Part shown: in pieces, positions 1 through 16,224 of the stretch
Layout of the letters: each line of letters opens with the position of its first letter
Position numbering within the stretch: position 1 is the stretch's first letter
Source: an uncultured Bacteroidales bacterium
GTDB lineage: Bacteria > Bacteroidota > Bacteroidia > Bacteroidales > DTU049
Reading direction: 5' to 3'
Assembly: GCA_964388575.1 (NCBI GenBank)
Contig: CAYMAZ010000008.1
Location: forward strand, 1,821-65,820
Length of the DNA stretch: 64,000 nucleotides
Translations under genes and position numbers: made by a program
The notes under the pieces: generated by a model
What the model was told of the DNA's origin: nothing
Databases searched by the model: none
The model's input: only the letters and a program-made list of their open reading frames with translations

Positions 1-1396
1 GGATGTTAATAACAACTCCGGGAAACCTGAATATCAAATCGTTACTTTTGATCATTGAGTTGAGAAAGGCAAGGCCTCTGGCCTTCCCACCTAAAGATCC
101 CTGTCCTATTCTTGAAAAAATCAGATATTTACTAAACCGGTCTCTTTCAAAATCTGCAATGACTCCTCTTGCCTTATGGTAACGATATTTTGCAATACTA
201 TCAAACAAAAACCGTCTAACTTCATCAACATCGGTAAAATCATCTGCATGAATCTGTCTGAAGAGTGAAGCGATTGGAAACAAAGCTCTCGCTCTGAGCC
301 ATTTTGAAAAATGATTGTGGCTGATATGATATTGAAGTGATTGATCAGGAACTTCAAATATTCTTTGTTGTAATTCCTGCAGATCTCTTGCACGGATCAA
401 TTCAGATTTGTCCTCAGGATCAACAAAAACAAAATCACCAAAAGCTAGATATTGGTTGATAAAGTTTTTAAGTTCAACCAAAAGGGTTTTGGAGTATTTA
501 TGAATAAAACTGACATTGCATTTTTCTGCATATTCAGCATTTTTAAGATCCGATGACTGGAGCAGAAAAGGCAACTCAGGATCATCCTTTCTAACATATT
601 GACAGAATTTAAATCCAGCTATCGGATCTTTCATGCCACCACTTGAAAAACTCATATCTGAAATAACACCGAGCAGGTTTTCCTTGTACTTATTATACAC
701 TGCCATTGCTTCATCCAATGTTGTGGCAAGGAGAATTTTTGGTCTTCCTCTCATACGAAGCATTTGCTGGTGTTCATTGATCCCTTCTGTCATAAACTCC
801 TTTGACTGAACAAAAACAATCTTGTAAATACTTGGTAAATAACTGGAATAATAGCGGACCGAGTCTTCAACAAGCAGAATTGCCTGAACACCAACCTGAT
901 GAATATCATAATCAGCATTCATTTTATCTTCGATCAGTTTAATGATGGCCACCAGAATACTCGAGTTTCCGAGCCAGCAAAACACATAGTCAATAAAATT
1001 ATATTCTTCAATTTTAATTTTTGTTGTTACTTCTCTGGAAAACGGAGTGAGCACAACCAAAGGTATTGATGGATATTTGTTTTTAATTTCCTCAGCCAGT
1101 TCAATTGGATTGACTTCTGCAAGATTGAGCATTGTAATGACAAGGTCAATTTTTTCTTCCCGAAGCAGTTTGAAAGCATCTTCAGAAGTTGATGCCTGAA
1201 AAAATATTGGTGGATAGCGCAAATTCAGTGCAACATATTCATTAAATACCTGCTCATTGATTCTTCCGTCCTCTTCCAGAATAAATGCATCATAATTACT
1301 GCAAATCAGTAGCACATGACGAATTCGTTTCTGCATGAGTACATCAAATGATGTGTCTGAAAAGAAAAAATTGGTCAGATCAAGTTTATTTTCCAT
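1..1396 (-). CDS. Receiver-domain / PPDK-N-terminal (ATP-grasp, PEP/pyruvate-binding-type) protein; C-terminus lies beyond the window edge; paralog of 1468..4905
   Basis: My own minus-strand translation from ATG 1394-1396 stays open to position 1: MENKLDLTNFFFSDTSFDVLMQKRIRHVLLICSNYDAF...AILLVEDSVRYYSSYLPSIYKIV...GVISDMSF...GQGSLGGKARGLAFLNSMIK. It is collinear with the 1145-aa neighbour (RVILVVEDEPSYFSRYLPLLYKIV...LISDVKF...GSIGGKGRGLAFINTLL). It is missing from the ORF track, most likely because it has no stop codon inside the window. Confidence 0.8.
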   Translation of the reverse strand, partial: MENKLDLTNFFFSDTSFDVLMQKRIRHVLLICSNYDAFILEEDGRINEQVFNEYVALNLRYPPIFFQASTSEDAFKLLREEKIDLVITMLNLAEVNPIELAEEIKNKYPSIPLVVLTPFSREVTTKIKIEEYNFIDYVFCWLGNSSILVAIIKLIEDKMNADYDIHQVGVQAILLVEDSVRYYSSYLPSIYKIVFVQSKEFMTEGINEHQQMLRMRGRPKILLATTLDEAMAVYNKYKENLLGVISDMSFSSGGMKDPIAGFKFCQYVRKDDPELPFLLQSSDLKNAEYAEKCNVSFIHKYSKTLLVELKNFINQYLAFGDFVFVDPEDKSELIRARDLQELQQRIFEVPDQSLQYHISHNHFSKWLRARALFPIASLFRQIHADDFTDVDEVRRFLFDSIAKYRYHKARGVIADFERDRFSKYLIFSRIGQGSLGGKARGLAFLNSMIKSNDLIFRFPGVVINI

Positions 1397-1467: not shown

Positions 1468-4400
1468 TTATTTGACCATAACAACAGTAATCCGTTTTTT
1501 CCCATCCATCCTCACCGGAACAGGTTCAGGAAACCGAACATGTTTAAACCAGGTTGTTTCATTTATTACCTCCTGTTTTTCAAGAATTTCCCATGCAATA
1601 AAACTTCGAAAAGCTTTATGTTGAATGGAGCAGTATCCCACGTTCATAGAAGTGACATTATGAAAGAAATGCGACCCCATAGATGCATCTAGGGGAAAAT
1701 CTTCAAGACTTGTTTCTACAATAAGTTTTGCATTACTTATCTGAGGCCAGTTGACCGGGATTCCAATAAACCTGTCTCGTGTTCCCCATCTTCCCGGACC
1801 GATCAGAATGTATTTCACATTCTCATCTATCATCTTCCTGTTCAACGCTTCGATTTCGTCTGCCATCACCATCGTTTGTGTTTTGTCAAAAATGTCTCTT
1901 TTAATATAAATTACATCCTGAATGTTTTCAATTTTGCCGTTCCCCATACTTTTTTCTGCATATAACAAAATTTCTTCTTTTTTCAAATCTGAAAGATTGA
2001 TTTCATAATCTTCATTAGATCCAAGAAGTGGCTTGATCTGCAAAAGATAAAACGAAGCTTTTAAATCCTTGTCTCTGTTGATGTCAACTGCAAATTCAAT
2101 TTCAACTGGCGCACCCATGGCTTCCTCTACAATCTGCAAAATCACTTCAATTGTTTTTGCAAGGGGAATGTAATTATATTTGAGAATATTACTAAAATTT
2201 ATTACTCGTGGGCCGTCTTTTGTGATACCGGGAATCATGGTCCCAGATTCCATGTCATAGACAGATGCCAGATGTCTTAAATTTCCGTGTTTTTCAGCAT
2301 CGTAAATATCAAGTTTTGCAAGAGAAGCCAATTCCCCTTCAAGTAAATCAATCTCATGTTTATTGAGATCAAGAGCCAGAAAATCAACCTGACTATTTTT
2401 GTATTGATCTTTGGGGCTCAGAATTTCAGTTGTCGGATATTTTGGTGAAAATCTGTAAGCCTTATCTCCCTCAACGACATATTTTCCAAGTCCGAGTGCG
2501 AGCACAGCAAACCCTTCTTCGGGCTGCATATGTGCAAACGGATAATAATTGTATGATTGTGCCACCCCACTGATATGAGGATAAAAATATGAATCAAATT
2601 TATTGCCCACAACCTCCTGAATCACGACTGCCATTTTTTCCTGCTCAATCTTATAATTCACAGCCTGAATATACCCTCTGGCCATTGAAGAAAAGACAGA
2701 TGCAAAAACGAGCTTAATGGCATCTGTCAGCTGCTTAAGACGTGCATCAAACGAAGGACTGGAATTTGAAATCAGGTAGGTTTCAAAGATTCCAGCAAAG
2801 GGTTGTCTGATAGAATCTTCAAACAAACCGCTTGATCTTACAGCAATTGGTTTTGTAACAAGTTTTAATAACCGCTTCAGTTTTTTCAACAAACCCTCAC
2901 TCAGATTTGCATTTAAAAAAGTCCTTTTTATGATTTCGTAGTCATTTTCATGCATAACCAAATCAAGAAGTTGATTTTTTTCCATGAAGAAATCGAACTC
3001 ATCTGTTCCTATAAAACAAGTCTTGGGTGTTCGGAGATTGATGTTTGGAATTATTTTGCTGAGGTCAAAGGAATACAATAATGTGTTAATAAATGCAAGT
3101 CCTCTACCCTTTCCCCCAATAGAACCAGAAGCAAGACTCAGAATATTTCCTTCTTCAAGCTGTTCAAAATCATCGAAAGGCATAATTTTTCCCTTATCCT
3201 GTTCATTTCTATGCGTTTTAATGATCTTCAGCAAAAACTCCCTGATTTCCTGTGCAGAAGTGAAGTCGGACACCCGTTTTGGCCCCAATATTTTTGCAAC
3301 ATGAATTTCACCACGAGCCATCAACCATAGTGAAAAATGATTTCTTTTGGCATGATAGAGCAATGAGTCATCAGGAATATTTCGAAGCTGAAATTCAAAT
3401 TCTTTCAGGGAACGTGCGACAGCAAGCTCTCTACCATCAGGACTGCGGTAGACAAAATGGCCAAAACCAAGATAATGCCTGATAAAACTCATGATATCAG
3501 CAGAAAGCGTTTCACTGTTCTTGTCAATAAATGTTGTTTTCAGTTCATAGGCACGATTGGCATTCTGAATATCAGATGATTGGATGATGACGGGAAGTTC
3601 CGCATTATCATTCCGAACCTGCTCCACAAGTTCGAAGCCCGCTGTTTCATCCAAAACTCCGTTTTTAAAGAATTTGACATCAGAGATCAGACAGAGCATA
3701 AATTCCTTAAACTTGGTATACAAGTCCATTGCTTCTTCATAACATGATACATGAAGAATTTTTGGTCTTCCCCTTAATTTTAATACTTTGTAAAGTTCAT
3801 CTGTACTTACATCATTGATGATGTCTCTGGTCTGTTCAAGAACGATTTTATAGAGCAAGGGTAGATAACGGCTGAAATAGCTCGGTTCATCCTCAACCAC
3901 AAGAATAACTCTGACCAATCCAAGACGTGTGTCATTTTCCACATTGACCATATCTTCAAGCTGCTTGATCATTGCAAAAAACAAATTTGGCATGCCATTC
4001 CACACAAACATTTTATCAAAATAAGGAAGTTCATTTTCTTCAATTTCAAATTCATCATCCACATTTGCATTCAATAGGAAAAAAATGGGAATGTAGGGAT
4101 ATTCACTTTTAATATCTTTACTCAATATTTTGGGAGTTCTGGTATCATTCCCTATCATATAAATAATGAGGTCATAATGTTTGGAACGCAGTTTTTCGAA
4201 CACTTCCTCAGGAGCAGAAACTGCAGTGATACGCGGAAGAGATGTCAGATTCATCTGCTGATATTCACCAAGAACGTGTTCTGCAATGTGCCCCTCTTTT
4301 TCAAGACTATAAGCATCGTATAATGTTGAAATCAATAATATTTCACGAACTTTGAAAGGCATCAGATCATGAAAAACATCTCTGTTATAATTCAGTTTTG

Positions 4401-4905
4401 CCCAATATTTTTCCAGAAGAAACATATTATCCTTTCCGTCACCTCTGTTAATGTCTCTTGCTTTTTCCTCATCTTCCTGAACTTTTGCAAAAACCTGTTT
4501 TGCTTTCTGACTGTTGAGAAACCCAATGACAATAGACGAGAGGTTTCCGAGCAAATCTTCTTCTTCTTTCAAAAAGGGGCCATTATCAGCATCCGGAAAA
4601 TCTTTTGTATAAAAGACTTCTATGATGCCCTGATAATTGTCTATGGTTTTAAAATTCTTGCAAAGCTTCCATTTGGTCTCATGAAACAAATGTGTTTTGT
4701 ACTCATTCTCCATAAATCTGATTCTTGCAACGGCGTGTTCAGGATACTGCATTGCATTTGGCAGAATCAGGCAGATATTATGCATTGTTTCATCAACAGA
4801 CTTATTTTCTCGTATGATAGCAGTTGTTTTGTTGATGGCATTTAATTCTTTAAGTCTTTCACGGCTCTCGTGTATCAGCTTTTCCAGATCCTGTTTTGAT
4901 TCCAT
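1468..4905 (-). CDS. GAF-like sensor + two receiver-like domains + PPDK-N-terminal ATP-grasp protein (likely to be named PEP synthase, but lacks the swivel-His and PEP-binding domains)
   Basis: 1145-aa ORF. N-terminal sensor module: LKELNAINKTTAII...PNAMQYPEHAVARIRF...IEVFYTKDFPDADNGPFLKEEEDLL. Receiver-like segments: REILLISTLYDAYSLEKEG; RVILVVEDEPSYFSRYL...LISDVKF. ATP-grasp hallmarks: GSIGGKGRGLAF, VRSSGLFED, GPGRWGTRD. I found no TSHAA-type phosphohistidine motif. Confidence 0.8.
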   Translation of the reverse strand: MESKQDLEKLIHESRERLKELNAINKTTAIIRENKSVDETMHNICLILPNAMQYPEHAVARIRFMENEYKTHLFHETKWKLCKNFKTIDNYQGIIEVFYTKDFPDADNGPFLKEEEDLLGNLSSIVIGFLNSQKAKQVFAKVQEDEEKARDINRGDGKDNMFLLEKYWAKLNYNRDVFHDLMPFKVREILLISTLYDAYSLEKEGHIAEHVLGEYQQMNLTSLPRITAVSAPEEVFEKLRSKHYDLIIYMIGNDTRTPKILSKDIKSEYPYIPIFFLLNANVDDEFEIEENELPYFDKMFVWNGMPNLFFAMIKQLEDMVNVENDTRLGLVRVILVVEDEPSYFSRYLPLLYKIVLEQTRDIINDVSTDELYKVLKLRGRPKILHVSCYEEAMDLYTKFKEFMLCLISDVKFFKNGVLDETAGFELVEQVRNDNAELPVIIQSSDIQNANRAYELKTTFIDKNSETLSADIMSFIRHYLGFGHFVYRSPDGRELAVARSLKEFEFQLRNIPDDSLLYHAKRNHFSLWLMARGEIHVAKILGPKRVSDFTSAQEIREFLLKIIKTHRNEQDKGKIMPFDDFEQLEEGNILSLASGSIGGKGRGLAFINTLLYSFDLSKIIPNINLRTPKTCFIGTDEFDFFMEKNQLLDLVMHENDYEIIKRTFLNANLSEGLLKKLKRLLKLVTKPIAVRSSGLFEDSIRQPFAGIFETYLISNSSPSFDARLKQLTDAIKLVFASVFSSMARGYIQAVNYKIEQEKMAVVIQEVVGNKFDSYFYPHISGVAQSYNYYPFAHMQPEEGFAVLALGLGKYVVEGDKAYRFSPKYPTTEILSPKDQYKNSQVDFLALDLNKHEIDLLEGELASLAKLDIYDAEKHGNLRHLASVYDMESGTMIPGITKDGPRVINFSNILKYNYIPLAKTIEVILQIVEEAMGAPVEIEFAVDINRDKDLKASFYLLQIKPLLGSNEDYEINLSDLKKEEILLYAEKSMGNGKIENIQDVIYIKRDIFDKTQTMVMADEIEALNRKMIDENVKYILIGPGRWGTRDRFIGIPVNWPQISNAKLIVETSLEDFPLDASMGSHFFHNVTSMNVGYCSIQHKAFRSFIAWEILEKQEVINETTWFKHVRFPEPVPVRMDGKKRITVVMVK

Positions 4906-5127: not shown

Positions 5128-6498
<1,371 letters not shown>

Positions 6499-6521
6499 TG
6501 CTTTTGTCTTAAAGCTTAAGA

Positions 6522-6550
6522 GGCTGTCAGCATCATGACAGCCTTTTTTT
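6522..6550 (+). terminator. Rho-independent terminator of gdhA
   Basis: Perfect 8-bp stem ggctgtca (6522-6529) / tgacagcc (6536-6543), 6-nt loop, then T7 (6544-6550). Confidence 0.85.
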
Positions 6551-6734
6551 AATGAGCTACATATCCGTTTTCAATGTATACATTTATAAATTTTCATCAC
6601 ATTATTTTAAGTTTACATTAAAATAACAGACATGATTCTTTTTATGAATGTTGCATGATTTTTGATCATTACAGGGTTTATTTCAAAATATTAGTGAAAC
6701 AAATTATTTAAATCAAATTTATGAAATAAAATTT

Positions 6735-6742
6735 TAATTTTG
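6735..6742 (+). promoter_or_regulatory. Putative -7 box (TAATTTTG) for the ECF sigma operon
   Basis: Exact TAnnTTTG match 45 nt upstream of ATG 6788. It overlaps the TTG (6740) used by the ORF track, which argues for the ATG start. Confidence 0.4.
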
Positions 6743-6787
6743 CTGAATTCAGGAACTCCAGGAGAAATCGAAAAGTTAAAAAATCAA

Positions 6788-7381
6788 ATGTATCAGATTG
6801 AAACAGACAATCTGGAATTTATCAGAAAAGGTGATAAAGCTGCTTTCGAAAAAATATTCAGAGATTTTTATGAAAAACTTTGTTCCTTTGCGAACAGCTA
6901 TGTCTTTGATATTAATGAAGCTCAGGATATTGTTCAGGATCTGTTTTTTCATATCTGGGTGAATAGGGAAAAATTTCCAAAGGAGATTTCCCTGAAAGCA
7001 TATCTTTTCACTTCAGTGAAAAACAGGTGTCTGAATGTTCTGAAACACAGAAAAATCTTGAGAAAACATTCTGAAAGTGTCCTTTCAGAGCAATCACCAA
7101 ACAGGTATGACGTCGAATTTCCTGAACCGGATGAATTACATGAAAAAATAAGAAAGACCATCGAACTTCTACCCCCGGAAAGAAGAAAAATTTTAATCAT
7201 GAGCAAGTTCGACGGCTTCAAATACAGGGAAATTGCTGAAAAGCTGAATATTTCAGTAAAAACCGTAGAAAATCAGATGGGAAAAGCCCTGCAGTTTTTG
7301 CGTGACCAGCTTAAAGACGAACTGTCTGTCTTGTTGTTTTTATACGGAATGATGACATTATTAAAGTATTTCAATTTATGA
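6788..7381 (+). CDS. ECF (group IV sigma-70) RNA polymerase sigma factor
   Basis: Region 2 (AQDIVQDLFFHIWVNREKF) and region 4 helix-turn-helix (ERRKILIMSKFDGFKYREIAEKLNISVKTVENQMGKAL). Start moved from TTG 6740 to ATG 6788. Confidence 0.9.
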   Translation: MYQIETDNLEFIRKGDKAAFEKIFRDFYEKLCSFANSYVFDINEAQDIVQDLFFHIWVNREKFPKEISLKAYLFTSVKNRCLNVLKHRKILRKHSESVLSEQSPNRYDVEFPEPDELHEKIRKTIELLPPERRKILIMSKFDGFKYREIAEKLNISVKTVENQMGKALQFLRDQLKDELSVLLFLYGMMTLLKYFNL

Positions 7382-7474
7382 TAGGGGAAAAACGAAATCT
7401 GGTTGTAATACAATATGAAAGAAATCTAGTTGTGATTTCTATGCGTGATTTTATAATTCAAACAACTGCACATC

Positions 7475-8515
7475 ATGAATGATCCGGTTCAACCTTTAGC
7501 TGCCGAACTTCTTGCTTCATACCTTGCCGGTGAGATCAGCAGTGAAAAAGCCATGGCTGTTGAGAGCTGGATTGATTCATCTCCGGGGAACAGGCAATAT
7601 TTTGAAGAATTCAGAAAAATCTGGATTGAAACCGGGAAACTGAATCCCCCACCCTTATTTGTTAACGTTGATCAGGCCTGGAACTCGCTATCAGAAAGAA
7701 TTGAATCATTTGAAAAAACAGAAACCCCATCTGCCATTTCTGCAAACCAGTTTATCTTTACACGAGGTTTAATTTTACGCATTGCTGCAATAATAATGAT
7801 CCCTCTGCTATCTGTTTTCGGATATCTGATTGTCAGAAATACTTTGAACAAGGGCAAAACAAATGAACTGTTTGCCACCTCAGCGACAGTGAAAAAAGAC
7901 CTCCCGGACGGATCTGTTGTCACACTGAATGCACATTCGGGTCTGTCCTATCCGGAGAAATTTTCAGGAAAATTGAGGGAAGTAACAATGCACGGGGAAA
8001 TTTTCTTTGAAATCAGTCCTGATAAGGAAAAGCCATTTAAGGTATTTGCTGATAACGCTGAAATTATTGTTACCGGAACAACATTTAATGTGAGGTCATA
8101 TGCAGATGAGCCTGAAATTGTAGTATATGTGGAAAGCGGTAGGGTCATAATGAAAGTTGGAAACAGAGATTCAGGTCAAACGTCATCCGTAACACTGGAT
8201 GCCGGAGATAAGGGAATTTATCACAAAACAACACAGATACTTGAAAAAACCACACTCACTGTGGCAAACGATCTGTTCTGGCTCAACAATACCCTGAATT
8301 TCATCAGAACACCTCTGCCTGAGGTCATTTCAGTTATTGAGAAAAACTATAAAGTGACCATTGAACTCAAACAGGAACATTTCAAAAACCTTCGGTTATC
8401 ATCCTCGTTCACCAACCAGCCGGTTGACTCAATTCTACAAATTATCGCAGGCACTTTTGATATGAAACTGAATAAGAATGGAACACACTATATCCTGGAC
8501 AACAATGACAGGTAA
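7475..8515 (+). CDS. FecR-family transmembrane anti-sigma factor
   Basis: 346 aa. N-terminal anti-sigma segment, one TM helix (LILRIAAIIMIPLLSVFGYLIV), a periplasmic FecR-like core (GEIFFEI...FKVFADNAEIIVTGTTFNV) and a DUF4974-like C-terminus (LPEVISVIEKNYKVTIELK...DSILQIIAGTFDMK). Confidence 0.88.
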   Translation: MNDPVQPLAAELLASYLAGEISSEKAMAVESWIDSSPGNRQYFEEFRKIWIETGKLNPPPLFVNVDQAWNSLSERIESFEKTETPSAISANQFIFTRGLILRIAAIIMIPLLSVFGYLIVRNTLNKGKTNELFATSATVKKDLPDGSVVTLNAHSGLSYPEKFSGKLREVTMHGEIFFEISPDKEKPFKVFADNAEIIVTGTTFNVRSYADEPEIVVYVESGRVIMKVGNRDSGQTSSVTLDAGDKGIYHKTTQILEKTTLTVANDLFWLNNTLNFIRTPLPEVISVIEKNYKVTIELKQEHFKNLRLSSSFTNQPVDSILQIIAGTFDMKLNKNGTHYILDNNDR

Positions 8516-10313
8516 ATTGCATAAACATATTCTATACAGTTCAATTATTCTGTTGTTTCAGACATGCTGTTATGCACAGGCGTATCCGCTTGCAAAAAAG
8601 ATCACAATTCATATTCAGAATCAGTCAGTAGAGAACGTTCTGGCTTCAATCAGCCGGTCGGCAGATGTTGTTTTTTCGTACAATTCGGATATCATCCCGC
8701 TTGATTCATTTGTAACAATCAGGTACGAAAACACAGAAATCCAGAAGATACTGAACAACCTGTTTCCAAATCGTTATACTTACAAAACTTCAGGCAAATA
8801 CATCATTATACAAAACAAAAAAGTCATTTCAAAAGAGAATAAGCAAACTGAATTACAGGTTAAAGGGAGAATCATGGATTCAGAAACCGGAGATGCATTG
8901 GCAAATACATCAGTGTACAGTATTTCAGGGAAAGAGGAAATACTCACCGATTCGTCCGGTGGATTCACGCTGACAGTCAGACCCGGTGATGAAGACTTGT
9001 TTATTGCTGTGAACAATGAACATTTTGAGGATACACTTTTACTTATACCTTCGGCACATTCTGATTCTCTGGTCATCAGACTGAGGCCAAAAACCCTTCT
9101 TGATTCAATCAGACAAAACCTGAAACAGCTGGATATTGGAAAACCCTTCAAAAAATTGGGAATTTCATCCCTTTTTGTCAGGAAAGACATGATGACACAT
9201 GCCAGGAATATTGATTACTTTACACAGCGGCCGGTCCAGATATCATTTCTTCCGTTTGCCGGAACAAATTACAGGCTGAGCGGTTCGGTATCAAACATAT
9301 TTTCCCTGAATATTATTTCGGGCTACTCTTATGGTGTGAACGGTTGTGAAATCGGTGGTGTGCTCAATATCAACAGGGGTTTTGTAAGAGGGTTTCAGGC
9401 TGGCGGATTCGGGAACATTACCGGGGGAAAGACAAAGGCTGTTCAGGCAGCAGGATTCTTTAACCAGAATATGGGAAGCGTCAGTGGAGTTCAGTTTGCC
9501 GGATTTTACAACATGACCACAGATACTTTAAAAGGAATGCAGGCTTCTGGATTTGCAAACGTTGCAGGCGATACTTCGGCCGGAGCTCAGTTTGCAGGAT
9601 TTGCAAACGTTGGAGTAAAGACATTTTCAGGAATACAGATCGCAGGATTTGCAAATATTGTATCACATGACATAAAAGGTTTACAAATAAGCGGTTTTAC
9701 AAATGTCACAGGAAAAACATTACAGGGTATACAAATTGCAGGATTTCTCAATTATGCAAAAAAGGTTGAAGGTTCTCAGATCGGATTGATTAATATTGCT
9801 GATAGCGTATCCGGGCTATCCTTCGGCGTTTTCAATCTCATCTTAAATGGATTACACCAGTTTTCAATACATTTCAGCGAAACAGGCTGTAGTAGCCTGA
9901 GGCTGAGCCTTGGAACACATCATTTTTATTCAGTATACGGAATTCATCTGATGCCCGTTCAAGGGTCACTCGTACCTGGTTATGAATACGGATTCGGGAC
10001 GTACCTTTTTCATAAATCTAAGCTGAATCTCAGCATTGATGCCGGAGCGACCTACTTTCCCACAAATAAAATGCAGAATTTTGATGATTTTCTTATTTCA
10101 AAAATATCAGCAGATCTGAATGTCAAAATTTCACACCATCTGGCCATTTTTGCCGGGCCAACATATTCAGTCCATATTTCAGAAGACAAAAGTACTGATC
10201 CTGCAACGATACCGGACAATCTTATTTTTAATGTAAATATGAGAAAAGAATACGGTCATTACATGTCTACAGGGTGGTTTGGACTGCAGGCTGGTTTAAA
10301 ACTGGCATTCTAA
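8505..10313 (+). CDS. STN + carboxypeptidase-regulatory-like N-terminal extension fused to 16-residue GFxN repeats and a short C-terminal beta-barrel-like segment (no plug or TonB-dependent barrel recognised)
   Basis: Signal peptide (MTGKLHKHILYSSIILLFQTCCYAQA). STN-like segment: ITIHIQNQSVENVLASISRSADVVFSYNSD...ILNNLFPNRYTYKTSGKYIIIQ. CarboxypepD_reg-like segment: VKGRIMDSETGDALANTSVYSISGKEEILTDSSGGFTLTV. Then the repeats, with the protein ending ...WFGLQAGLKLAF. ATG 8505 overlaps the FecR stop by 11 nt; an alternative ATG is at 8478. Confidence 0.75.
   Translation: MTGKLHKHILYSSIILLFQTCCYAQAYPLAKKITIHIQNQSVENVLASISRSADVVFSYNSDIIPLDSFVTIRYENTEIQKILNNLFPNRYTYKTSGKYIIIQNKKVISKENKQTELQVKGRIMDSETGDALANTSVYSISGKEEILTDSSGGFTLTVRPGDEDLFIAVNNEHFEDTLLLIPSAHSDSLVIRLRPKTLLDSIRQNLKQLDIGKPFKKLGISSLFVRKDMMTHARNIDYFTQRPVQISFLPFAGTNYRLSGSVSNIFSLNIISGYSYGVNGCEIGGVLNINRGFVRGFQAGGFGNITGGKTKAVQAAGFFNQNMGSVSGVQFAGFYNMTTDTLKGMQASGFANVAGDTSAGAQFAGFANVGVKTFSGIQIAGFANIVSHDIKGLQISGFTNVTGKTLQGIQIAGFLNYAKKVEGSQIGLINIADSVSGLSFGVFNLILNGLHQFSIHFSETGCSSLRLSLGTHHFYSVYGIHLMPVQGSLVPGYEYGFGTYLFHKSKLNLSIDAGATYFPTNKMQNFDDFLISKISADLNVKISHHLAIFAGPTYSVHISEDKSTDPATIPDNLIFNVNMRKEYGHYMSTGWFGLQAGLKLAF
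9339..9843 (+). repeat. In-frame 48-nt (16-residue) tandem coding repeat array, about 10 units
   Basis: Units read from the translation: AGFFNQNMGSVSGVQF / AGFYNMTTDTLKGMQA / SGFANVAGDTSAGAQF / AGFANVGVKTFSGIQI / AGFANIVSHDIKGLQI / SGFTNVTGKTLQGIQI / AGFLNYAKKVEGSQI ... Confidence 0.85.
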
Positions 10314-10343
10314 AATAATCATAAGTTATTTTTTAAAAAAATT

Positions 10344-10380
10344 CCTATTCAGATAAGAATCCAATAGGGGTATTTTTTTT
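10344..10380 (+). terminator. Possible weak intrinsic terminator or attenuator between the STN protein and its paralog
   Basis: Stem cctatt (10344-10349) / aatagg (10363-10368), extendable with two G-U pairs. 13-nt loop, then T8 (10373-10380). Confidence 0.35.
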
Positions 10381-10430
10381 CTGAGTTGTTATTGATAAGA
10401 TTACTCAATTATTCATTAATAACAATTACA

Positions 10431-11612
10431 ATGAAACAAAAACTATTTTCTGCGATTGTTTACCTGATTTTGTTGAACAGCCTGAATGCACATTCACAAA
10501 ACGGCGACAGCTCAAAGACATGCGTCAGGCCTGTTCAGTTGACATTTGTTTATCCACTTGGTACCAACGGCGTTGAATCAGGGAAAATCACCAACAACTT
10601 TTCTTTTAATATATTTGCAGGGCACAATGGAGGTCTGAATGGCGCTGAAATCGGAGGTTTTTCAAATACCATCAAACATACAATGACTGGTTTTCAGATT
10701 GCGGGATTCAGCAATGTTGTACTTGGAGAGGTTTCGGGCTGCCAGATCAGCGGATTCAGCAATTTCGTAAAACAAAACGTAAAAGGATGCCAGATTGCCG
10801 GTTTTTCAAATGTGACAGGAGATTCATCAAAAGTCTCCCAGTTTTCGGGTTTTTCAAATGTGATCAACGGATCAAATAACGGGATTCAAATTTCAGGCTT
10901 TTCCAATGTAACTTCTGATGATTATGAAGGTGCACAGATTTGCGGATTCAGCAATGTTTCGAGAGGAACCCACAGAGGGTGCCAGATTGCAGGGTTTTCA
11001 AATGTTTCCACAGGCAACCTTGAAGGATTGCAACTGAGCGGATTCATTAATGTTGCAGGGAAACTGAAAGGTGCTCAGATCGGCTTTATCAATGTCTGTG
11101 ATACCGTTGAAAACGGAATTCCCTTCGGTTTTATCAGTATCGTAACCAAAGGGTACAAAGCCATTGATCTGCATTATGATGAATCGCATTTTTTTAATAT
11201 CGGTATTCATACAGGAGCAGACCAGTTTTATAACATATTCACAGCAGGTCTCAGAATCAAATCTGAAAATTTCTTCTGGTCATACGGCTATGGTGTCGGA
11301 TCAAAATTCAGGATGACAGACAGATTGAACACAAATCTTGAGTTAACTTCAACTTACATTTCTCCTGACAAATGGTATCACAAAAGTTTCAATATGATTT
11401 GCAGGTTGCAACTGCTTGGGTCGTATAGACTGATAAATCATGTACATCTGTTTGGTGGAGTCAGTGCCAATGCTTTCATTACAAACAGAAAAACGGATGA
11501 AGGCATCCTGACCGACAGCGGACTTGTTTCATGGTCATTTTACAGAACAGACACGGGAAATTTTCTGCATAAATTCTATCCTGGATTCAGTGCCGGTATT
11601 CGCATATTTTAA
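10431..11612 (+). CDS. Paralogous GFSN-repeat outer-membrane protein (no STN or CarboxypepD_reg domain)
   Basis: Signal peptide MKQKLFSAIVYLILLNSLNAHSQ, ten 16-residue repeats, and a C-terminal alternating-hydrophobic segment ending ...GFSAGIRIF. Start moved from TTG 10386 to ATG 10431. Confidence 0.75.
   Translation: MKQKLFSAIVYLILLNSLNAHSQNGDSSKTCVRPVQLTFVYPLGTNGVESGKITNNFSFNIFAGHNGGLNGAEIGGFSNTIKHTMTGFQIAGFSNVVLGEVSGCQISGFSNFVKQNVKGCQIAGFSNVTGDSSKVSQFSGFSNVINGSNNGIQISGFSNVTSDDYEGAQICGFSNVSRGTHRGCQIAGFSNVSTGNLEGLQLSGFINVAGKLKGAQIGFINVCDTVENGIPFGFISIVTKGYKAIDLHYDESHFFNIGIHTGADQFYNIFTAGLRIKSENFFWSYGYGVGSKFRMTDRLNTNLELTSTYISPDKWYHKSFNMICRLQLLGSYRLINHVHLFGGVSANAFITNRKTDEGILTDSGLVSWSFYRTDTGNFLHKFYPGFSAGIRIF
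10641..11144 (+). repeat. In-frame 48-nt (16-residue) tandem coding repeat array, about 10 units
   Basis: Units: AGFSNVVLGEVSGCQI / SGFSNFVKQNVKGCQI / AGFSNVTGDSSKVSQF / SGFSNVINGSNNGIQI / SGFSNVTSDDYEGAQI / CGFSNVSRGTHRGCQI / AGFSNVSTGNLEGLQL / SGFINVAGKLKGAQI ... Confidence 0.85.
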
Positions 11613-11640
11613 ACAAACCATTCATTAAAATCCTTACAAA

Positions 11641-12372
11641 ATGAAAACAAATCTCATGAAATCAATTGCAATTTTTGCACTCATCATTATCACAACAATG
11701 CTTGTCACATCCTGCCAAAAGGAGTTCGGGAAAGGCCCTGTTGTGAATGTAATCAGAACTGTTGACAATTTTTCAAAAATTAAAGTTGAGAATTCTGCAA
11801 CAGTGCGTATTAAGAAAGGAGAATTTCAAAAAGTTGAAGTGTCAGATTATGAAAATCTAATCGGTTATTTATCGGTTGAAACAATTAATAATGAGTTGAT
11901 TATCAAAACAAAGCCTTACAATGTCATTCTGAAAAATTCACTGGCAACAGTAACCATCACTACTCCGGATGTTCTGACAGCAATTAAAATCAGCGGGAGC
12001 AGTGATGTGTCAGTTACAGATACCATGTCTACCTTACAAAATGTTCAAATCAGTGGAAGCGGATCATTTGAATCAAAATACAATGCATACACTTCATATA
12101 TTTCAAGTGAGATTTCCGGATCAGGAGATATCAGTATGAACGGTGTAAACGATAATGTTTATGCAAAAATTTCCGGATCTGGAAATATCAATTTCGGAGG
12201 ACTCGTATCTCAGCACGCCGTGTGTAATATCAGCGGCAGTGGTGACATTACAGTCAATGCACAGCAAACTCTCAGTGTCACTATCAGCGGCAGTGGAAAT
12301 GTGTATTACTTCGGCAATCCATCAATTAACACCAATATTTCAGGAAGCGGAAAAATTATCAGATTGAACTGA
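11641..12372 (+). CDS. DUF2807 (putative autotransporter-adhesin head GIN domain) lipoprotein
   Basis: Lipobox LVTSC after a hydrophobic leader. Repeated (I/V)SGSG(D/N)(I/V) rungs (ISGSSDV, ISGSGSF, ISGSGDI, ISGSGNI, ISGSGDI, ISGSGNV, ISGSGKI), typical of DUF2807 beta-helices. Confidence 0.75.
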   Translation: MKTNLMKSIAIFALIIITTMLVTSCQKEFGKGPVVNVIRTVDNFSKIKVENSATVRIKKGEFQKVEVSDYENLIGYLSVETINNELIIKTKPYNVILKNSLATVTITTPDVLTAIKISGSSDVSVTDTMSTLQNVQISGSGSFESKYNAYTSYISSEISGSGDISMNGVNDNVYAKISGSGNINFGGLVSQHAVCNISGSGDITVNAQQTLSVTISGSGNVYYFGNPSINTNISGSGKIIRLN

Positions 12373-12547
12373 AATTATATTACATGATAACTCAACTATA
12401 TAATACCTCATTATCTTAAAATAGGCTTTGAAAAGATTAGTAAATCTTAAAATCTGTCAAATATTCTGTAATACTTATTTAGAACGATACATTATCGTAC
12501 GCAAAAACTTTGTACTTTTATAATTCATAAACTAAATCTGTGTATCG

Positions 12548-13321
12548 ATGAGGCTGGCTATCATATCAGACATTCACGAAGATGTTGTTAATTTAACAAA
12601 AGCATTACGAATGATTGAAAAAGCAAATTGTGATGAAATTATTTGTCTGGGAGATATTGTCGGATTTAGTGTTCCGTATTATAAGTATATTGAAACACGC
12701 AATGCCAACCGATGTATCAGTTTGATTTCAGAAAATGTAAAATATGTCGTTGCGGGAAACCATGATCATTATGCCATCAGGAAGCTGCCAACAATTGTTC
12801 CCGGATTCAACTTACCTGCAGACTGGTACGAATTGCCTTTCTATAAACGCAAAGAGCTCGCTGCAAATCAGTTATGGCTATTTGAAGACAACGAACTTTC
12901 CGCTTTACTTGATGATCAATCCAAAGAATATATCAACAATCTTCCTGAAATGACAACAATTCAAGCCGAAAATCTCAAAATTCTACTGACACATTTTTTA
13001 AGCCCTGATATTACTGGTATCACAAAAAACTTCATTTACACATCAGGCGGATTCTCATCACATCATGAATTAATGATCGGGCACGAAGCCAGTTTATCAC
13101 TTTTTGGACATACTCATCAAAACGGTATGTATATCTTTGACTGCGGAAATGGAAATCCAATCATCTCAAAAAAAACAAAAATCAGTGCATCTCTATGCAG
13201 CATTGGTATTCCTGCAATTGCATCTTCAAACGGATTCTCAGGTTTTGCAATTCTTGACACAGAAAAATGTTCGATAGAAGTCAGATCAATTAGACCTGTG
13301 TTTAATTTAATATCCGGATAA
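12548..13321 (+). CDS. Metallophosphoesterase (calcineurin-like)
   Basis: Ordered motifs SDIH, GDIVG, GNHD, LLTH, GHTH. The stop lies 2 nt before the next start. Confidence 0.85.
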   Translation: MRLAIISDIHEDVVNLTKALRMIEKANCDEIICLGDIVGFSVPYYKYIETRNANRCISLISENVKYVVAGNHDHYAIRKLPTIVPGFNLPADWYELPFYKRKELAANQLWLFEDNELSALLDDQSKEYINNLPEMTTIQAENLKILLTHFLSPDITGITKNFIYTSGGFSSHHELMIGHEASLSLFGHTHQNGMYIFDCGNGNPIISKKTKISASLCSIGIPAIASSNGFSGFAILDTEKCSIEVRSIRPVFNLISG

Positions 13322-13323
13322 TT

Positions 13324-16224
13324 ATGAATAAAAAAACAGGATCAATGTTGAAGTTTTTTAATAAAATTATACTCCCTTCATTTCTGGCAGTATTACTTTT
13401 TATTCTAACATTATTTTTTATTGTAATTCCGGTATTTGAAAATGCAATGATGGACCGGAAACGGGAAATGATTCAGGAGCTTACAAACTCAGCATCAAGT
13501 ATTCTGGAAAAATATTATAAAGACGAGGTTGAAGGAATGATTTCCAAAGAAGATGCACAGCAAACTGCCATCTCACGCATTCAATATCTTCGTTACGGTG
13601 ATGAAAACAAAGATTATTTCTGGATCACCGATATGCATCCCAATATGATTATGCATCCATATGTTCCTGAACTAAACGGCACTGATCTGAGTGATTATGA
13701 AGATTCACACGGGAAAAAATTGTTTGTTGAATTTGTCAGTATTGTTAAAGAACAGGGACAGGGATTTGTTGACTATATGTGGCAATGGAAAGATGACTCA
13801 ACACATGTTGTTCCAAAACTTTCATATGTCAAAAAATTTGAACCCTGGGGATGGATTATCGGAACTGGCATTTATATTGAAGATGTCAGAAAAGAAATTT
13901 CTGCACTCTCATCAAAGTTAATGTACATAAGCATTATCATTGCAGCTATTACTGCATTGTTACTTACATTCATTTCATTTCAGTCATTGCGCATTGAACG
14001 AAAAAGACAATCGGCTGAAAGTAATCTGAAAGAATCACGAGAAAAATATCGATCATTAGTTGAAGCCTCAACTGAAGGACTTGTGATGATCAGTGACAAC
14101 AGGATCATTTTTGCAAATCCGGTGTTTCTGAAATTATCAGGATTGGCATGGGATGAACTTGAATCGATGAACTGGCAAGATATTTTCATTTTACCAGTAC
14201 AGTTGAATGAGAAACTTACCCATGGCAATCATGATATTGAGACCGAACCGTTTGAGACTGACATCTCTCTTCCTGTCAATCGTAAAATTCATGCACTCAT
14301 TCATTTAACACCCATATTATTTTACGGTAAGAAGGCAGTCATCTTTTCAATAAAAGATATCAGCACCGATATTATTATGAAACGCGAGTTGTTTGAAAGT
14401 CGTGAGCGGTTCAAGACATTGATGGATAAATTGAATGTTGGTATTTTCAGAACAACAATGGATGCCCGTGGTCGTTTTGTTGAAGCCAATCATACAGCTC
14501 TGCAGCTTCTAGGATATAACGATAATGAGCATTTTAAAGAAAAATATATCCTTGATCTGTTTGCTGAAAAAGAAGATAAAAAACAATTCAGAAATGATTT
14601 GTTAAATAAGGGATTCATCAGAAACAAGGTCATCAAATTAAAAAAAACTGACGGGGAAATTGCCCATATGATGGTTTCTTTGGCTGTAATTACAGGTGAA
14701 GACGGGCAGGCAACATATTGTGATGGAATCATTGAACCATTTTCATCCAAAATAACAGCCAAACAGTTTACTCAAAAGATAATCAACACAAATGAACTGA
14801 GAACTCTAATTCATTCAATCGGAGTCCATACATTTATCAAACCACTTCAAACAATCAGGCTGGACCAACCGATTGGAGAGGCTACACTTTTAATGGATGA
14901 TTTACAAAACAGAGTTCTTTTTGTTTCTGATAATCAAAGTCGGATTCTTGGTTTTGTAACTGATACTGAGATTGCAACTGGTCTGACCACATCGGGATTG
15001 AAAAAAAATTCACCCGTTTTTAACATCATGAGATCTCCGCTTATTTCGGTAAAAGAAAACACTTCTGTAATTACTGCAAAATCAATACTAAGAAAAAGAT
15101 CATATCCTGCTTTAACAGTTTCAGGTTATGATGAAAACATTGTTGGGTACATACACACAAACGACCTTAATGCTATTGATGAAATCCGTATGAGTGAGAT
15201 TTTTGAAGAAATCGGAAAGGCATTAAGTATAGAAAATCTTACTCAATTACGTTTTGAATTTGTAACCATCATTGCCAAACTAACAGAAAACAAATTACCT
15301 TCAAATGTAATACTGCAACTTCTTTCCGAAGTGTTTGATTCCATAACTTCAAGATTGTTTGATTTGGCTTATGTTGAACTGGGCACCCCTCCTGTTGAAT
15401 TTGCTTTTGTTGTAATGGGGAGTGAAGGCAGACTTGAACAAACACTGAAAACAGATCAGGATAATGCAATGATATATCGGGATACTGAAACAGATATGGA
15501 AAGCCATTCCAAATACTTTTTAAATCTTGGAACCTGGATTAATAACGCTCTTCATTACATCGGCTACGCACTTTGCAAAGGTGAAAATATGTCAATGAAT
15601 CCTCAATGGAACAAACCTTTAAGCGATTGGAAGAACTATTTTTACAAATGGATTAATAGTGGACAACCTAAAGATTTACTTGATATCAATATTTTCTTTG
15701 ATCTTCGATTTTGTTATGGAACTCCTGCAATTGTTGAAGAGCTTGAATCACATATTCTTTCTGAAAGCAAATCCAATACTGCATTTCTGCATCATCTTGC
15801 AAAAAATGCGATGCATTTTAAACCATCAGTAAATCTTTTTGGAAATGTAATAGTTGAATCTGCAGGCGCACCTGCAGATACACTTCGAATTAAAGACAAT
15901 ATTGCAGCCATTGTAAATTTTACAAGAATTTATGCCTTACAACAGGGAATAACAAATAAAAACACAATACTCAGGTTAAGAGAGCTCAACATTAAGGGAG
16001 TTTTAAACGATTCGGAATTAACAGAAACCGTTAGAGTATTTGAATATCTTACTTCAATCCGAATTCAACATCAGGCATCGCTAATTCTTGAGAATAAAGA
16101 AGCTGACAACATTATTCATGTCAAGACACTTACTGGCTTTGAGCAGACAATGATTAAAAAATCATTATCAATAATAAATGACATGTTAAGCAAGCTCAAT
16201 TTTGACTTTAAACTAAATTTATAA
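13324..16224 (+). CDS. Membrane sensor: single Cache - TM - PAS - PAS - CBS pair - DUF294 putative nucleotidyltransferase + DUF294_C
   Basis: 966 aa. TM1, then a Cache-like ectodomain (DYFWITDMHPNMIMHPY...GFVDYMWQWKD...WGWIIGTGIYIEDV), then TM2. Two PAS-like blocks (RSLVEASTEGLVMISDNRIIFANP; FKTLMDKLNVGIFRTTMDARGRFVEAN), a CBS pair, and the DUF294 signature FAFVVMGSEGRLEQTLKTDQDNAMIY. Confidence 0.8.
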   Translation: MNKKTGSMLKFFNKIILPSFLAVLLFILTLFFIVIPVFENAMMDRKREMIQELTNSASSILEKYYKDEVEGMISKEDAQQTAISRIQYLRYGDENKDYFWITDMHPNMIMHPYVPELNGTDLSDYEDSHGKKLFVEFVSIVKEQGQGFVDYMWQWKDDSTHVVPKLSYVKKFEPWGWIIGTGIYIEDVRKEISALSSKLMYISIIIAAITALLLTFISFQSLRIERKRQSAESNLKESREKYRSLVEASTEGLVMISDNRIIFANPVFLKLSGLAWDELESMNWQDIFILPVQLNEKLTHGNHDIETEPFETDISLPVNRKIHALIHLTPILFYGKKAVIFSIKDISTDIIMKRELFESRERFKTLMDKLNVGIFRTTMDARGRFVEANHTALQLLGYNDNEHFKEKYILDLFAEKEDKKQFRNDLLNKGFIRNKVIKLKKTDGEIAHMMVSLAVITGEDGQATYCDGIIEPFSSKITAKQFTQKIINTNELRTLIHSIGVHTFIKPLQTIRLDQPIGEATLLMDDLQNRVLFVSDNQSRILGFVTDTEIATGLTTSGLKKNSPVFNIMRSPLISVKENTSVITAKSILRKRSYPALTVSGYDENIVGYIHTNDLNAIDEIRMSEIFEEIGKALSIENLTQLRFEFVTIIAKLTENKLPSNVILQLLSEVFDSITSRLFDLAYVELGTPPVEFAFVVMGSEGRLEQTLKTDQDNAMIYRDTETDMESHSKYFLNLGTWINNALHYIGYALCKGENMSMNPQWNKPLSDWKNYFYKWINSGQPKDLLDINIFFDLRFCYGTPAIVEELESHILSESKSNTAFLHHLAKNAMHFKPSVNLFGNVIVESAGAPADTLRIKDNIAAIVNFTRIYALQQGITNKNTILRLRELNIKGVLNDSELTETVRVFEYLTSIRIQHQASLILENKEADNIIHVKTLTGFEQTMIKKSLSIINDMLSKLNFDFKLNL

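Follow-up and report, generated by a model that had tools for sequence, protein, structure and literature searches.

Which outer-membrane protein serves an extracytoplasmic function (ECF) sigma factor and its FecR-type anti-sigma factor when the gene that follows them does not encode a TonB-dependent transporter? Bacteroidota encode dozens of ECF sigma/FecR pairs, and these are usually read as switches of SusC-type nutrient transporters. One such pair lies in a stretch of 64,000 nucleotides (64 kb) of contig CAYMAZ010000008.1 (assembly GCA_964388575.1; hereafter the window) from an uncultured Bacteroidales bacterium. There it is followed by genes for a 602-residue protein with an STN-type signalling domain and 16-residue repeats, which we call STNrep, for a paralog of STNrep that has no STN domain, and for a DUF2807 lipoprotein. 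A sequence-only reading of the window had suggested that these five genes form a trans-envelope signalling pathway whose outer-membrane sensor is not a transporter.

We find that the module is best described as a real, widespread and uncharacterised variant of cell-surface signalling (CSS), with a structurally novel outer-membrane component and a predictable regulon. It has the CSS features that could be tested: the sigma factor type, the FecR architecture, an adjacent STN-bearing partner and a conserved promoter-like motif. It is not a TonB-dependent transducer system; a Plug domain and a 22-strand barrel were both searched for and neither was found. New here is also the bipartite promoter-like motif itself, which likely defines the regulon. 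With a probability of roughly 0.6, we read the locus as a self-contained, CSS-like trans-envelope switch in which the sigma factor, FecR and STNrep would be wired together as set out below.

Domain architecture of STNrep and its companions

The first two products of the module were classified by profile searches. The sigma factor matched TIGR02985 (3e-52, 177 bits against a cut-off of 126) as well as Sigma70_ECF, Sigma70_r2 and Sigma70_r4_2. The anti-sigma factor matched FecR (PF04773; 9.8e-14, 52 bits) and FecR_C, formerly DUF4974 (PF16344; 4.6e-11, 43 bits), both above their cut-offs; its single transmembrane segment is the most hydrophobic 19-mer of the protein, and a GT.F motif lies at residue 201. 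Both identities, including the DUF4974-like C-terminus, had been proposed from the letters alone, and both held. Likewise, an open reading frame (ORF) listing agreed with the five plus-strand genes at the coordinates proposed earlier (Table 1) and with the 11-nt overlap of the STNrep start with the fecR stop.

The N-terminus of STNrep had been likened to the signalling extension of FecA or SusC-like proteins. The domain types were right: when 57 aligned homologues were scanned singly, all 57 matched CarbopepD_reg_2 and 42 matched STN (PF07660; best 4e-9), and the family profile matched a SusC homologue's isolated NTE (N-terminal extension) domain (9hfj_A, 1.3e-7). The order was not, as STN comes before CarboxypepD_reg in STNrep, whereas the CarboxypepD_reg (NTE) domain precedes STN in SusC-type transducers (PMC7782687). 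In the window protein taken alone, both matches stay below the Pfam thresholds (STN, E = 0.0087, 16 bits; CarbopepD_reg_2, E = 6e-4, 20 bits).

The sequence-only reading had also failed to recognise a plug, and profile searches bear this out. Plug (PF07715) gave no match at E ≤ 1 in the window's STNrep and none at E ≤ 0.01 in the 57 homologues, TonB_dep_Rec (PF00593) matched neither STNrep nor any of the 57, and STNrep showed no match to TonB_C. Only about 160 residues follow the repeats, and they resemble 8-strand barrels rather than the 22-strand barrel of TonB_dep_Rec proteins. Residues 194–239 contain no DEVVV-like motif and are not conserved in the 57-sequence consensus, where a short TonB box could escape sequence inspection.

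An AlphaFold2 (AF2) model of STNrep with the family alignment as input reached a predicted local distance difference test (pLDDT) score of 88.3 and resolved the protein into an STN domain, a CarboxypepD_reg domain, a β-solenoid and a C-terminal 8-strand barrel. DSSP assigned to the solenoid a strict pattern of 7- and 4-residue strands every 16 residues, at pLDDT 94–98. The ten 16-residue repeats counted earlier correspond to nine units in perfect register (residues 280–423) with one or two degenerate units at the ends. Each coil follows the form GxQxAGFxNxxxxxxx, and a conserved RPVQxSFxPxxGTN motif opens the solenoid. The repeat motif occurs 8 times against 0.03 in shuffled sequences, and the repeat number is narrow, lying between 9 and 11 in 90 of 119 homologues. 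The LA_2272_repeat model (NF047436, cut-off 25 bits) scored just below its cut-off in STNrep (23 bits).

Foldseek searches of the Protein Data Bank (PDB) returned, for the N-terminus, a transthyretin-like domain (5aq0; target TM-score, TMt, 0.79), the PupA signalling domain (2a02; TMt 0.65), PilQ N0 and DotD, and for the C-terminus the 8-strand barrels NspA, OmpA-TM, OprF-N, Opa60 and a designed 8-strand barrel (TMt 0.5–0.66). For the STNrep and paralog models alike these matches were weak and local, none having E ≤ 1e-3, and the solenoid of neither model had a fold match in the PDB. The last residue is F, L, I or W in 106 of 119 STNrep homologues; a hydrophobic or aromatic last residue is expected of outer-membrane proteins inserted by the β-barrel assembly machinery (BAM). 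From the model we infer that STNrep is an outer-membrane protein anchored by its 8-strand barrel. Since 8-strand outer-membrane barrels have both termini in the periplasm, an established topology, the solenoid, CarboxypepD_reg and STN domains would hang into the periplasm.

The presence in one N-terminus of both domain types of SusC-like transducers raises the question of whether the 602-residue gene arose by truncation or decay of a SusC/FecA-type transducer. That idea is effectively refuted by the family itself. STNrep has more than 1300 full-length homologues of 550–750 residues, typically 600–700, which share its architecture, and none of the 57 scanned singly gives a Plug or barrel signal. 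The fold model is confident, the repeat number narrow and the domain order inverted relative to SusC. Further, residues 1–240 searched against 1.84 billion representative proteins gave 3466 relatives, 498 of them at E ≤ 1e-10, or some 500 clusters of sequences grouped at 50% identity; the best 150 were all ≤ 781 residues long and none was SusC-sized. STNrep therefore appears to be an old and coherent family rather than a recently truncated transporter. Many homologues carry precomputed STN and CarbopepD_reg_2 matches, and some already bear an NCBI architecture name, a label without function. Longer homologues (about 700–725 residues) have the same architecture and are not fusions to FecR or to other domains. 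The identical 602-residue protein is present in public data, and the nearest homologue from any other organism shares only 64% identity with it.

The fourth gene had been called a paralog without the STN domain, and alignment agrees: its product aligns with STNrep residues 223–600 (32% identity, E = 3e-62), has neither STN nor CarboxypepD_reg and begins directly at the RPVQxSFxPxxGTN motif. It scores above the LA_2272_repeat cut-off (29.3 bits). Its AF2 model (pLDDT 91.8) combines a regular solenoid with a C-terminal barrel, and its only Foldseek matches are small barrels. The paralog family has more than 1100 homologues, all unnamed or 'hypothetical' and free of Pfam domains. The fifth product, proposed to be a DUF2807 lipoprotein, is a clear one: it covers profile positions 1–181 of 181 of PF10988 (3.4e-36, 125 bits), its PDB relatives are the 'Toastrack'/GIN β-helix proteins 3jx8, 3pet, 3ljy and 4opw, and the lipobox Cys25 is invariant across 16 orthologues. 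We also considered the solenoid as a Toastrack relative and dropped the idea, since hhalign comparison of the paralog and DUF2807 families found no relation beyond the signal peptides.

Gene neighbourhoods and the promoter-like motif

Two narrow peptide patterns derived from a 12-sequence alignment, applied to one genome per species, identified 469 confirmed loci, which is a lower bound. The best 80 of these all belong to Bacteroidota, among them Chitinophagaceae, Dyadobacter and other Cytophagales, Pedobacter, Marinifilum and Bacteroidales-like metagenome-assembled genomes (MAGs). Gene context was counted over 82 loci searched with the window's five proteins. FecR lies directly upstream of STNrep on the same strand in 77 of the 82, and the sigma factor upstream of FecR, again on the same strand, in 73, most exceptions being contig ends. 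The three genes keep this arrangement in about 76 of the 82 loci. Between fecR and STNrep the median gap is 10 nt, and the two genes overlap in 25 of the 76 pairs, a spacing typical of co-translated genes. The accessory genes vary: the STN-less paralog occurs at 31 and DUF2807 at 32 of the 82 loci, and a TonB-dependent transporter without STN (about 780 residues; CarboxypepD_reg, Plug and TonB_dep_Rec) at 46. Thus sigma factor, FecR and STNrep form the constant core, and paralog, DUF2807 protein and transporter are variable. The survey proposed by the sequence-only reading accordingly gave a divided answer, with the three core genes adjacent in nearly all loci but a TonB-dependent transporter often present as well.

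The loci share a bipartite promoter-like motif, ATAGGGGTA-N12-GTTGTY. It is apparent in a k-mer enrichment upstream of the sigma genes, where TAGGGGTA is followed by 12 nt and then GTTGT(C/T). In about 40 loci it stands some 85 nt ahead of the start codon; this position suggests autoregulation in those lineages. Counted by strict regular expression over 2.4 Mb, the motif gave 95 matches against 10.1 expected, and 84 of the 95 lie directly upstream of module genes: 36 before sigma genes, 20 before the transporter, 13 before the paralog, 6 before fecR, 3 before DUF2807, 2 before STNrep, 2 before PepSY-like genes and 2 before others. The spacer is 12 nt in 82 of the 84 sites, which also show a conserved ATAG at positions that the expression left unconstrained. 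Read as TAGGGG plus TGTC, the two elements stand 16 nt apart, the usual spacing of ECF sigma promoters. The frequent placement before sigma genes in other lineages points to the module's own sigma factor as the probable reader of the motif.

In the window, only two sites match the motif with two mismatches or fewer, against 0.16 expected in 64 kb, and both fall in intergenic gaps of the module. The first, P1 (ATAGGGGAAAAACGAAATCTGGTTGTA), has two mismatches; a site at the same position occurs in the relatives L083, L084, L004, L005 and L006. The second, P2 (ATAGGGGTATTTTTTTTCTGAGTTGTT), is the sole match to GGGGTA-N11-14-GTTGT in the 64 kb (0.03 expected). A site at the P2 position also occurs in L084 and a weaker one in L083, and the motif precedes paralogs in about 20 other loci. 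No motif site was found upstream of the window's sigma gene, and autoregulation of the sigma factor is therefore not proposed for this lineage. The predicted transcription units are the sigma gene from a motif-less promoter of its own, fecR–STNrep from P1 and paralog–DUF2807 from P2. Bacteroides sigma/anti-sigma/SusC switches have a sigma gene that is primed constitutively and, downstream of it, the sigma-dependent promoter (PMC2709373); by analogy, the placement of P1 matches such a promoter after a separately primed sigma gene.

Two side observations concern this region. The sequence TAATTTTG at 6735–6742, 46 nt upstream of the sigma ATG, matches the Bacteroidetes housekeeping -7 consensus TAnnTTTG; it was spotted by eye only, and chance matches of this kind are frequent in AT-rich DNA. 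In L083, a 35-residue gene (7874–7981) is called between sigma and fecR over the P1 motif region and is probably spurious.

The transporters behind the motif bear on a second explanation of STNrep, in which it would be an adaptor. An STN-less TonB-dependent transporter, encoded nearby or elsewhere in the genome, would bind the substrate, and STNrep, docked to it through the solenoid or the CarboxypepD_reg domain, would relay its occupancy to FecR; the system would then be ordinary nutrient-uptake CSS with the signalling part on a separate polypeptide. The 46 transporter loci and the 20 strict motif sites directly upstream of the transporter speak for this arrangement, as does the DUF2807 gene that commonly follows the transporter as it follows the paralog in the window. 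With the transporter in 46 of 82 loci and behind the motif in at least 20, a separation of the pathway from transporters is therefore not general. On the other hand, the transporter is absent within 8 kb in the other 36 loci, what is always kept is sigma–FecR–STNrep and not the transporter, and the remaining motif targets are diverse and unrelated, comprising PepSY-like and DUF6134 proteins and an operon of SRPBCC, DUF2062-short-chain dehydrogenase (SDR) fusion and epimerase genes. Within the 64-kb window, tblastn gave no match to the locus-associated transporter, PepSY-like, DUF6134 or small proteins, and a scan of the ten largest other ORFs there turned up no TonB-dependent transporter. We regard the adaptor role as possible but doubtful, and as the main rival to a self-contained switch. 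The earlier claim of a partner in place of a transporter thus stands for this locus, which has no Plug, no 22-strand barrel and no associated transporter in the window, but not for the family as a whole, in which transporters are frequent members of the putative regulon.

The transporter lies directly behind the motif in L008 (10271–13348), L025 (10055–13388) and about 20 other Chitinophagaceae loci, usually with the DUF2807 lipoprotein gene immediately next; DUF2807 pairs with either transporter or paralog, an arrangement that recalls pairs of a barrel with a lipoprotein. With one mismatch (GTTGCC), the motif precedes a three-gene set in Bacteroidales-like MAGs (L011 9745–12723; L059 10842–13821) for an SRPBCC-like 210-residue protein, a fusion of DUF2062 with a short-chain dehydrogenase, and an NAD-dependent epimerase, which suggests lipid- or envelope-modifying targets in that lineage. 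Small genes behind the motif (L026 10151–10579, L030 10083–10511, L034 1241–1927, L020 12405–12815 and L066 9953–10363) encode PepSY_like (142 residues) and DUF6134 (228 residues) proteins and proteins of 136–138 residues that have no Pfam match.

A third explanation takes STNrep, its paralog and the DUF2807 protein as adhesins or outer membrane–periplasm scaffolds under sigma/FecR control. The STN-like fold would then be structural, as are N0 domains in secretins, and FecR would directly sense something other than STNrep. Secretins and DotD, both represented among the Foldseek matches, also have STN/N0 folds, the STN score of the window's protein is weak, STNrep lies behind P1 and is thus itself a target, and a DUF2807 protein of P. 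gingivalis is reported to be an adhesin (PMC10949514). However, it is the STN-bearing form, not the STN-less paralog, that is kept directly after FecR and often overlaps it, and STNrep is constant where paralog, DUF2807 protein and transporter vary. In addition, FecR retains FecR_C, the module that binds STN in characterised systems (PMC7186176). We therefore consider a purely structural or adhesive role unlikely.

Proposed mechanism and related systems

In the self-contained switch that we favour, FecR would sit in the inner membrane and hold the ECF sigma factor with its cytoplasmic N-terminus. STNrep would occupy the outer membrane with its small 8-strand barrel and project into the periplasm a rigid solenoid of about ten coils, the helical linker, the CarboxypepD_reg domain and, at the tip, STN, which would contact the periplasmic FecR and FecR_C domains of the anti-sigma factor. 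The proposed contact follows characterised systems. In Fec, Pup and Fox, the FecR-type regulator is bound at its C-terminal domain (STN-like plus juxtamembrane) by the STN domain of the outer-membrane partner (PMC7186176); the two are in contact when no signal is present, and this shields the anti-sigma factor from proteolysis (PMC11637429). Similarly, each cognate anti-sigma factor of a Bacteroides SusC protein is bound at its C-terminus by the SusC N-terminal domains (PMC2709373). If the analogy with FoxA/FoxR and PupB/PupR holds, STN would likewise stabilise the anti-sigma factor here. A cue acting on the barrel or solenoid, such as perturbation of the outer membrane or periplasm or the binding of a partner, would break or alter the contact, which would make STNrep the putative sensor; candidate partners are the paralog, the DUF2807 lipoprotein and, in other lineages, the STN-less TonB-dependent transporter. 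FecR would then be degraded and the sigma factor released to read ATAGGGGTA-N12-GTTGTY, with P1 resetting the switch through fecR–STNrep and P2 providing the output.

Several points weigh against this proposal. The domain matches of the window's STNrep lie below threshold, as given above, and the count of eight strands and the periplasmic placement rest on DSSP, on local Foldseek matches with E values of only 0.002–0.1 and on the even-strand topology rule. At three Dyadobacter loci (L044 7847–9815; L023; L014 904–2867), STNrep occurs with no sigma/FecR pair beside it. Finally, the transporter in 46 of 82 neighbourhoods or putative regulons favours a nutrient-linked role in those lineages, where STNrep may be an adaptor rather than a sensor. 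Of the three Dyadobacter loci, L044 and L023 have the paralog after STNrep, L044 and L014 retain the motif directly upstream, and the upstream neighbours in L044 are a LysR regulator and a dehydrogenase.

More specifically, STNrep may be a TonB-independent sensor of outer-membrane or periplasm integrity, a reading that we hold to be possible though tentative. Its rigid rod would bridge to FecR, and loss of the bridge, through outer-membrane damage, failed assembly of outer-membrane proteins, altered spacing of the envelope or its displacement by the STN-less paralog once this is induced, would free the sigma factor. If so, the module would be a Bacteroidota-wide envelope-stress pathway built from CSS parts, with a role like that of RpoE/RseA or Rcs, and the paralog and the DUF2807 lipoprotein would be effectors or feedback elements. 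DUF2807 belongs to the 'Toastrack' superfamily, whose members recur beside envelope-stress signalling systems (Lia, Psp) and were proposed to be mostly intracellular (PMC11237479), whereas the DUF2807 protein of the window is an exported lipoprotein with a conserved lipobox cysteine. The module probably reports an envelope signal.

The consequences differ with the reading. In hundreds of species, a large subset of sigma/FecR pairs is wired differently from the SusC-type scheme, the FecR partner being a small solenoid-barrel outer-membrane protein with two-thirds of its length outside any Pfam domain and no characterised family member. Should STNrep signal independently of TonB, it would represent a new type of input for FecR-family anti-sigma factors and, in a phylum whose envelope-stress pathways are poorly known, a candidate for one. 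Should it relay the occupancy of a separate transporter, it would show that a transporter can be served by an STN signalling domain supplied in trans. Either way, motif and architecture together offer better annotation for thousands of 'hypothetical' genes and a testable regulon.

Like E. coli FecI-FecR-FecA and the Fox/Pup systems of Pseudomonas, the module encodes together an ECF sigma factor, a single-pass FecR with FecR and STN-like domains, and an outer-membrane partner that presents STN in the periplasm, as predicted for STNrep. The partners differ: those of Fec, Fox and Pup have a TonB box, a plug and a 22-strand barrel, whereas STNrep has a CarboxypepD_reg domain, a β-solenoid and an OmpA-sized barrel, and no link to TonB energy or iron is evident at the module. 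The likeness to the ECF-sigma/anti-sigma/SusC-like switches of Bacteroides (PMC2709373, PMC7782687) includes the phylum, the sigma family TIGR02985, FecR with FecR_C, an outer-membrane partner gene right after the anti-sigma gene, a sigma-dependent promoter downstream of the sigma gene and a partner with both STN and CarboxypepD_reg/NTE domains. In contrast, the module has no SusC barrel, SusD or glycan-degrading genes, its STN comes before the NTE-type domain and not after it, and its predicted targets are a paralogous small outer-membrane protein and a DUF2807 lipoprotein.

The non-transporter CSS partner that the sequence-only reading suggested has two precedents. In the PUMA3 system of P. 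aeruginosa (VreA-VreI-VreR), the STN-bearing 'receptor' VreA is not a TonB-dependent transporter but a soluble periplasmic protein of about 23 kDa with STN and a TolA/TonB-C-like domain (PMC2729926). As here, the STN partner is not a transporter and the regulon is not an uptake system for a substrate of the receptor itself; STNrep differs in being a predicted integral outer-membrane protein with CarboxypepD_reg, solenoid and barrel, in its phylum and in showing no sequence relation to VreA beyond STN. Dma1 of Bacteroides joins an anti-sigma domain, a transmembrane helix, a disordered linker and a C-terminal 8-strand barrel in one polypeptide, with a sigma factor of the ECF21 type (PMC10927553). 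It is a functional precedent for a Bacteroidota-specific coupling in which an 8-strand barrel, instead of a transporter, links the outer membrane with an ECF sigma switch. Here, by contrast, two proteins, FecR and STNrep, would be joined by the proposed STN contact, a folded solenoid replaces the disordered linker and FecR has folded periplasmic domains, so that only the 8-strand barrel resembles Dma. STNrep fits neither family.

The only model to recognise the 16-residue repeat is an NCBIfam one named after LA_2272 of Leptospira, and such family labels carry no function. In the literature searched we found no paper describing the module and no functional study of the STNrep family, LA_2272, VC2662 or the motif; there we found the family mentioned only in one table of differential expression (PMC12893687) and in lists from proteomic or vaccine work.

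Module boundaries and neighbouring genes

The features discussed are collected in Table 1. An intrinsic terminator upstream of the module had been proposed, and RNA folding confirms its hairpin and T-run (-18.3 kcal/mol, z = -5.4). It belongs to gdhA (5158–6498), whose orthologues in L083 and L084 carry ELFV_dehydrog domains, the basis of its identification. The downstream boundary was upheld in part: the 175-nt AT-rich gap 3' of 12372 is real, but no convincing terminator hairpin was found in it. A terminator scan gave nothing useful within the module, a sigma-70 promoter scan performed no better than shuffles, and neither Rfam families at gathering threshold nor tRNA genes were found in the whole 64-kb window, whose GC content is low (about 36%).

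Table 1 Features of the module in the window (residue numbers refer to the protein named)
Feature	Position	Strand	Description
gdhA intrinsic terminator	6518..6553	+	hairpin 6518–6547 plus T-run; upstream boundary of the module
ECF sigma factor gene	6788–7381	+	197 residues, Bacteroidetes FecI-like type
P1 promoter-like site	7381–7407	+	first base shared with the end of the sigma stop codon; 68 nt from the fecR ATG downstream
fecR-type anti-sigma gene	7475–8515	+	346 residues
FecR layout			cytoplasmic N-terminus, one transmembrane segment (residues 98–116), periplasmic FecR domain, FecR_C (STN-like) domain
STNrep gene	8505–10313	+	602 residues, predicted outer-membrane partner protein
STNrep signal helix	residues 4–20		AlphaFold2 model
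STNrep STN (signalling-type) domain	8595..8816	+	residues about 31–104
STNrep CarboxypepD_reg/NTE-like β-sandwich	8853..9083	+	residues about 117–193
STNrep helical linker	residues about 194–239		AlphaFold2 model, helical at 198–235, lower confidence
STNrep β-solenoid	9222..9830	+	residues about 240–442; about ten 16-residue coils
STNrep C-terminal 8-strand barrel (predicted)	9831..10310	+	residues about 443–602; ends ...GLKLAF
P2 promoter-like site	10364–10390	+	matches the family motif perfectly; 41 nt from the paralog ATG downstream
Paralog gene	10431–11612	+	393 residues; signal peptide, solenoid, predicted 8-strand barrel
DUF2807 lipoprotein gene	11641–12372	+	243 residues; 28-nt gap after the paralog gene

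In the window and in L084 (7287–11417), the module lies between gdhA and a metallophosphoesterase gene. In L083, a 60%-identical relative, the five-gene block is intact at 7296–13055 and is placed after the metallophosphoesterase and Cache/PAS/DUF294 genes. As the order within the module is constant and its position relative to the neighbours shifts, the block appears to behave and move as one unit. In the window, the metallophosphoesterase gene (12548–13321) is followed after 2 nt by a gene for a 966-residue sensor protein with sCache_2, PAS, CBS and DUF294 nucleotidyltransferase domains (13324–16224), and this pair is kept in L083 (3589–7217). Upstream of gdhA, on the minus strand at 1468–4905, lies a gene for a 1145-residue protein with a PPDK_N (pyruvate phosphate dikinase nucleotide-binding) domain; in L084 (1–5571) this protein is doubled in tandem, one copy having a faint response-regulator match.

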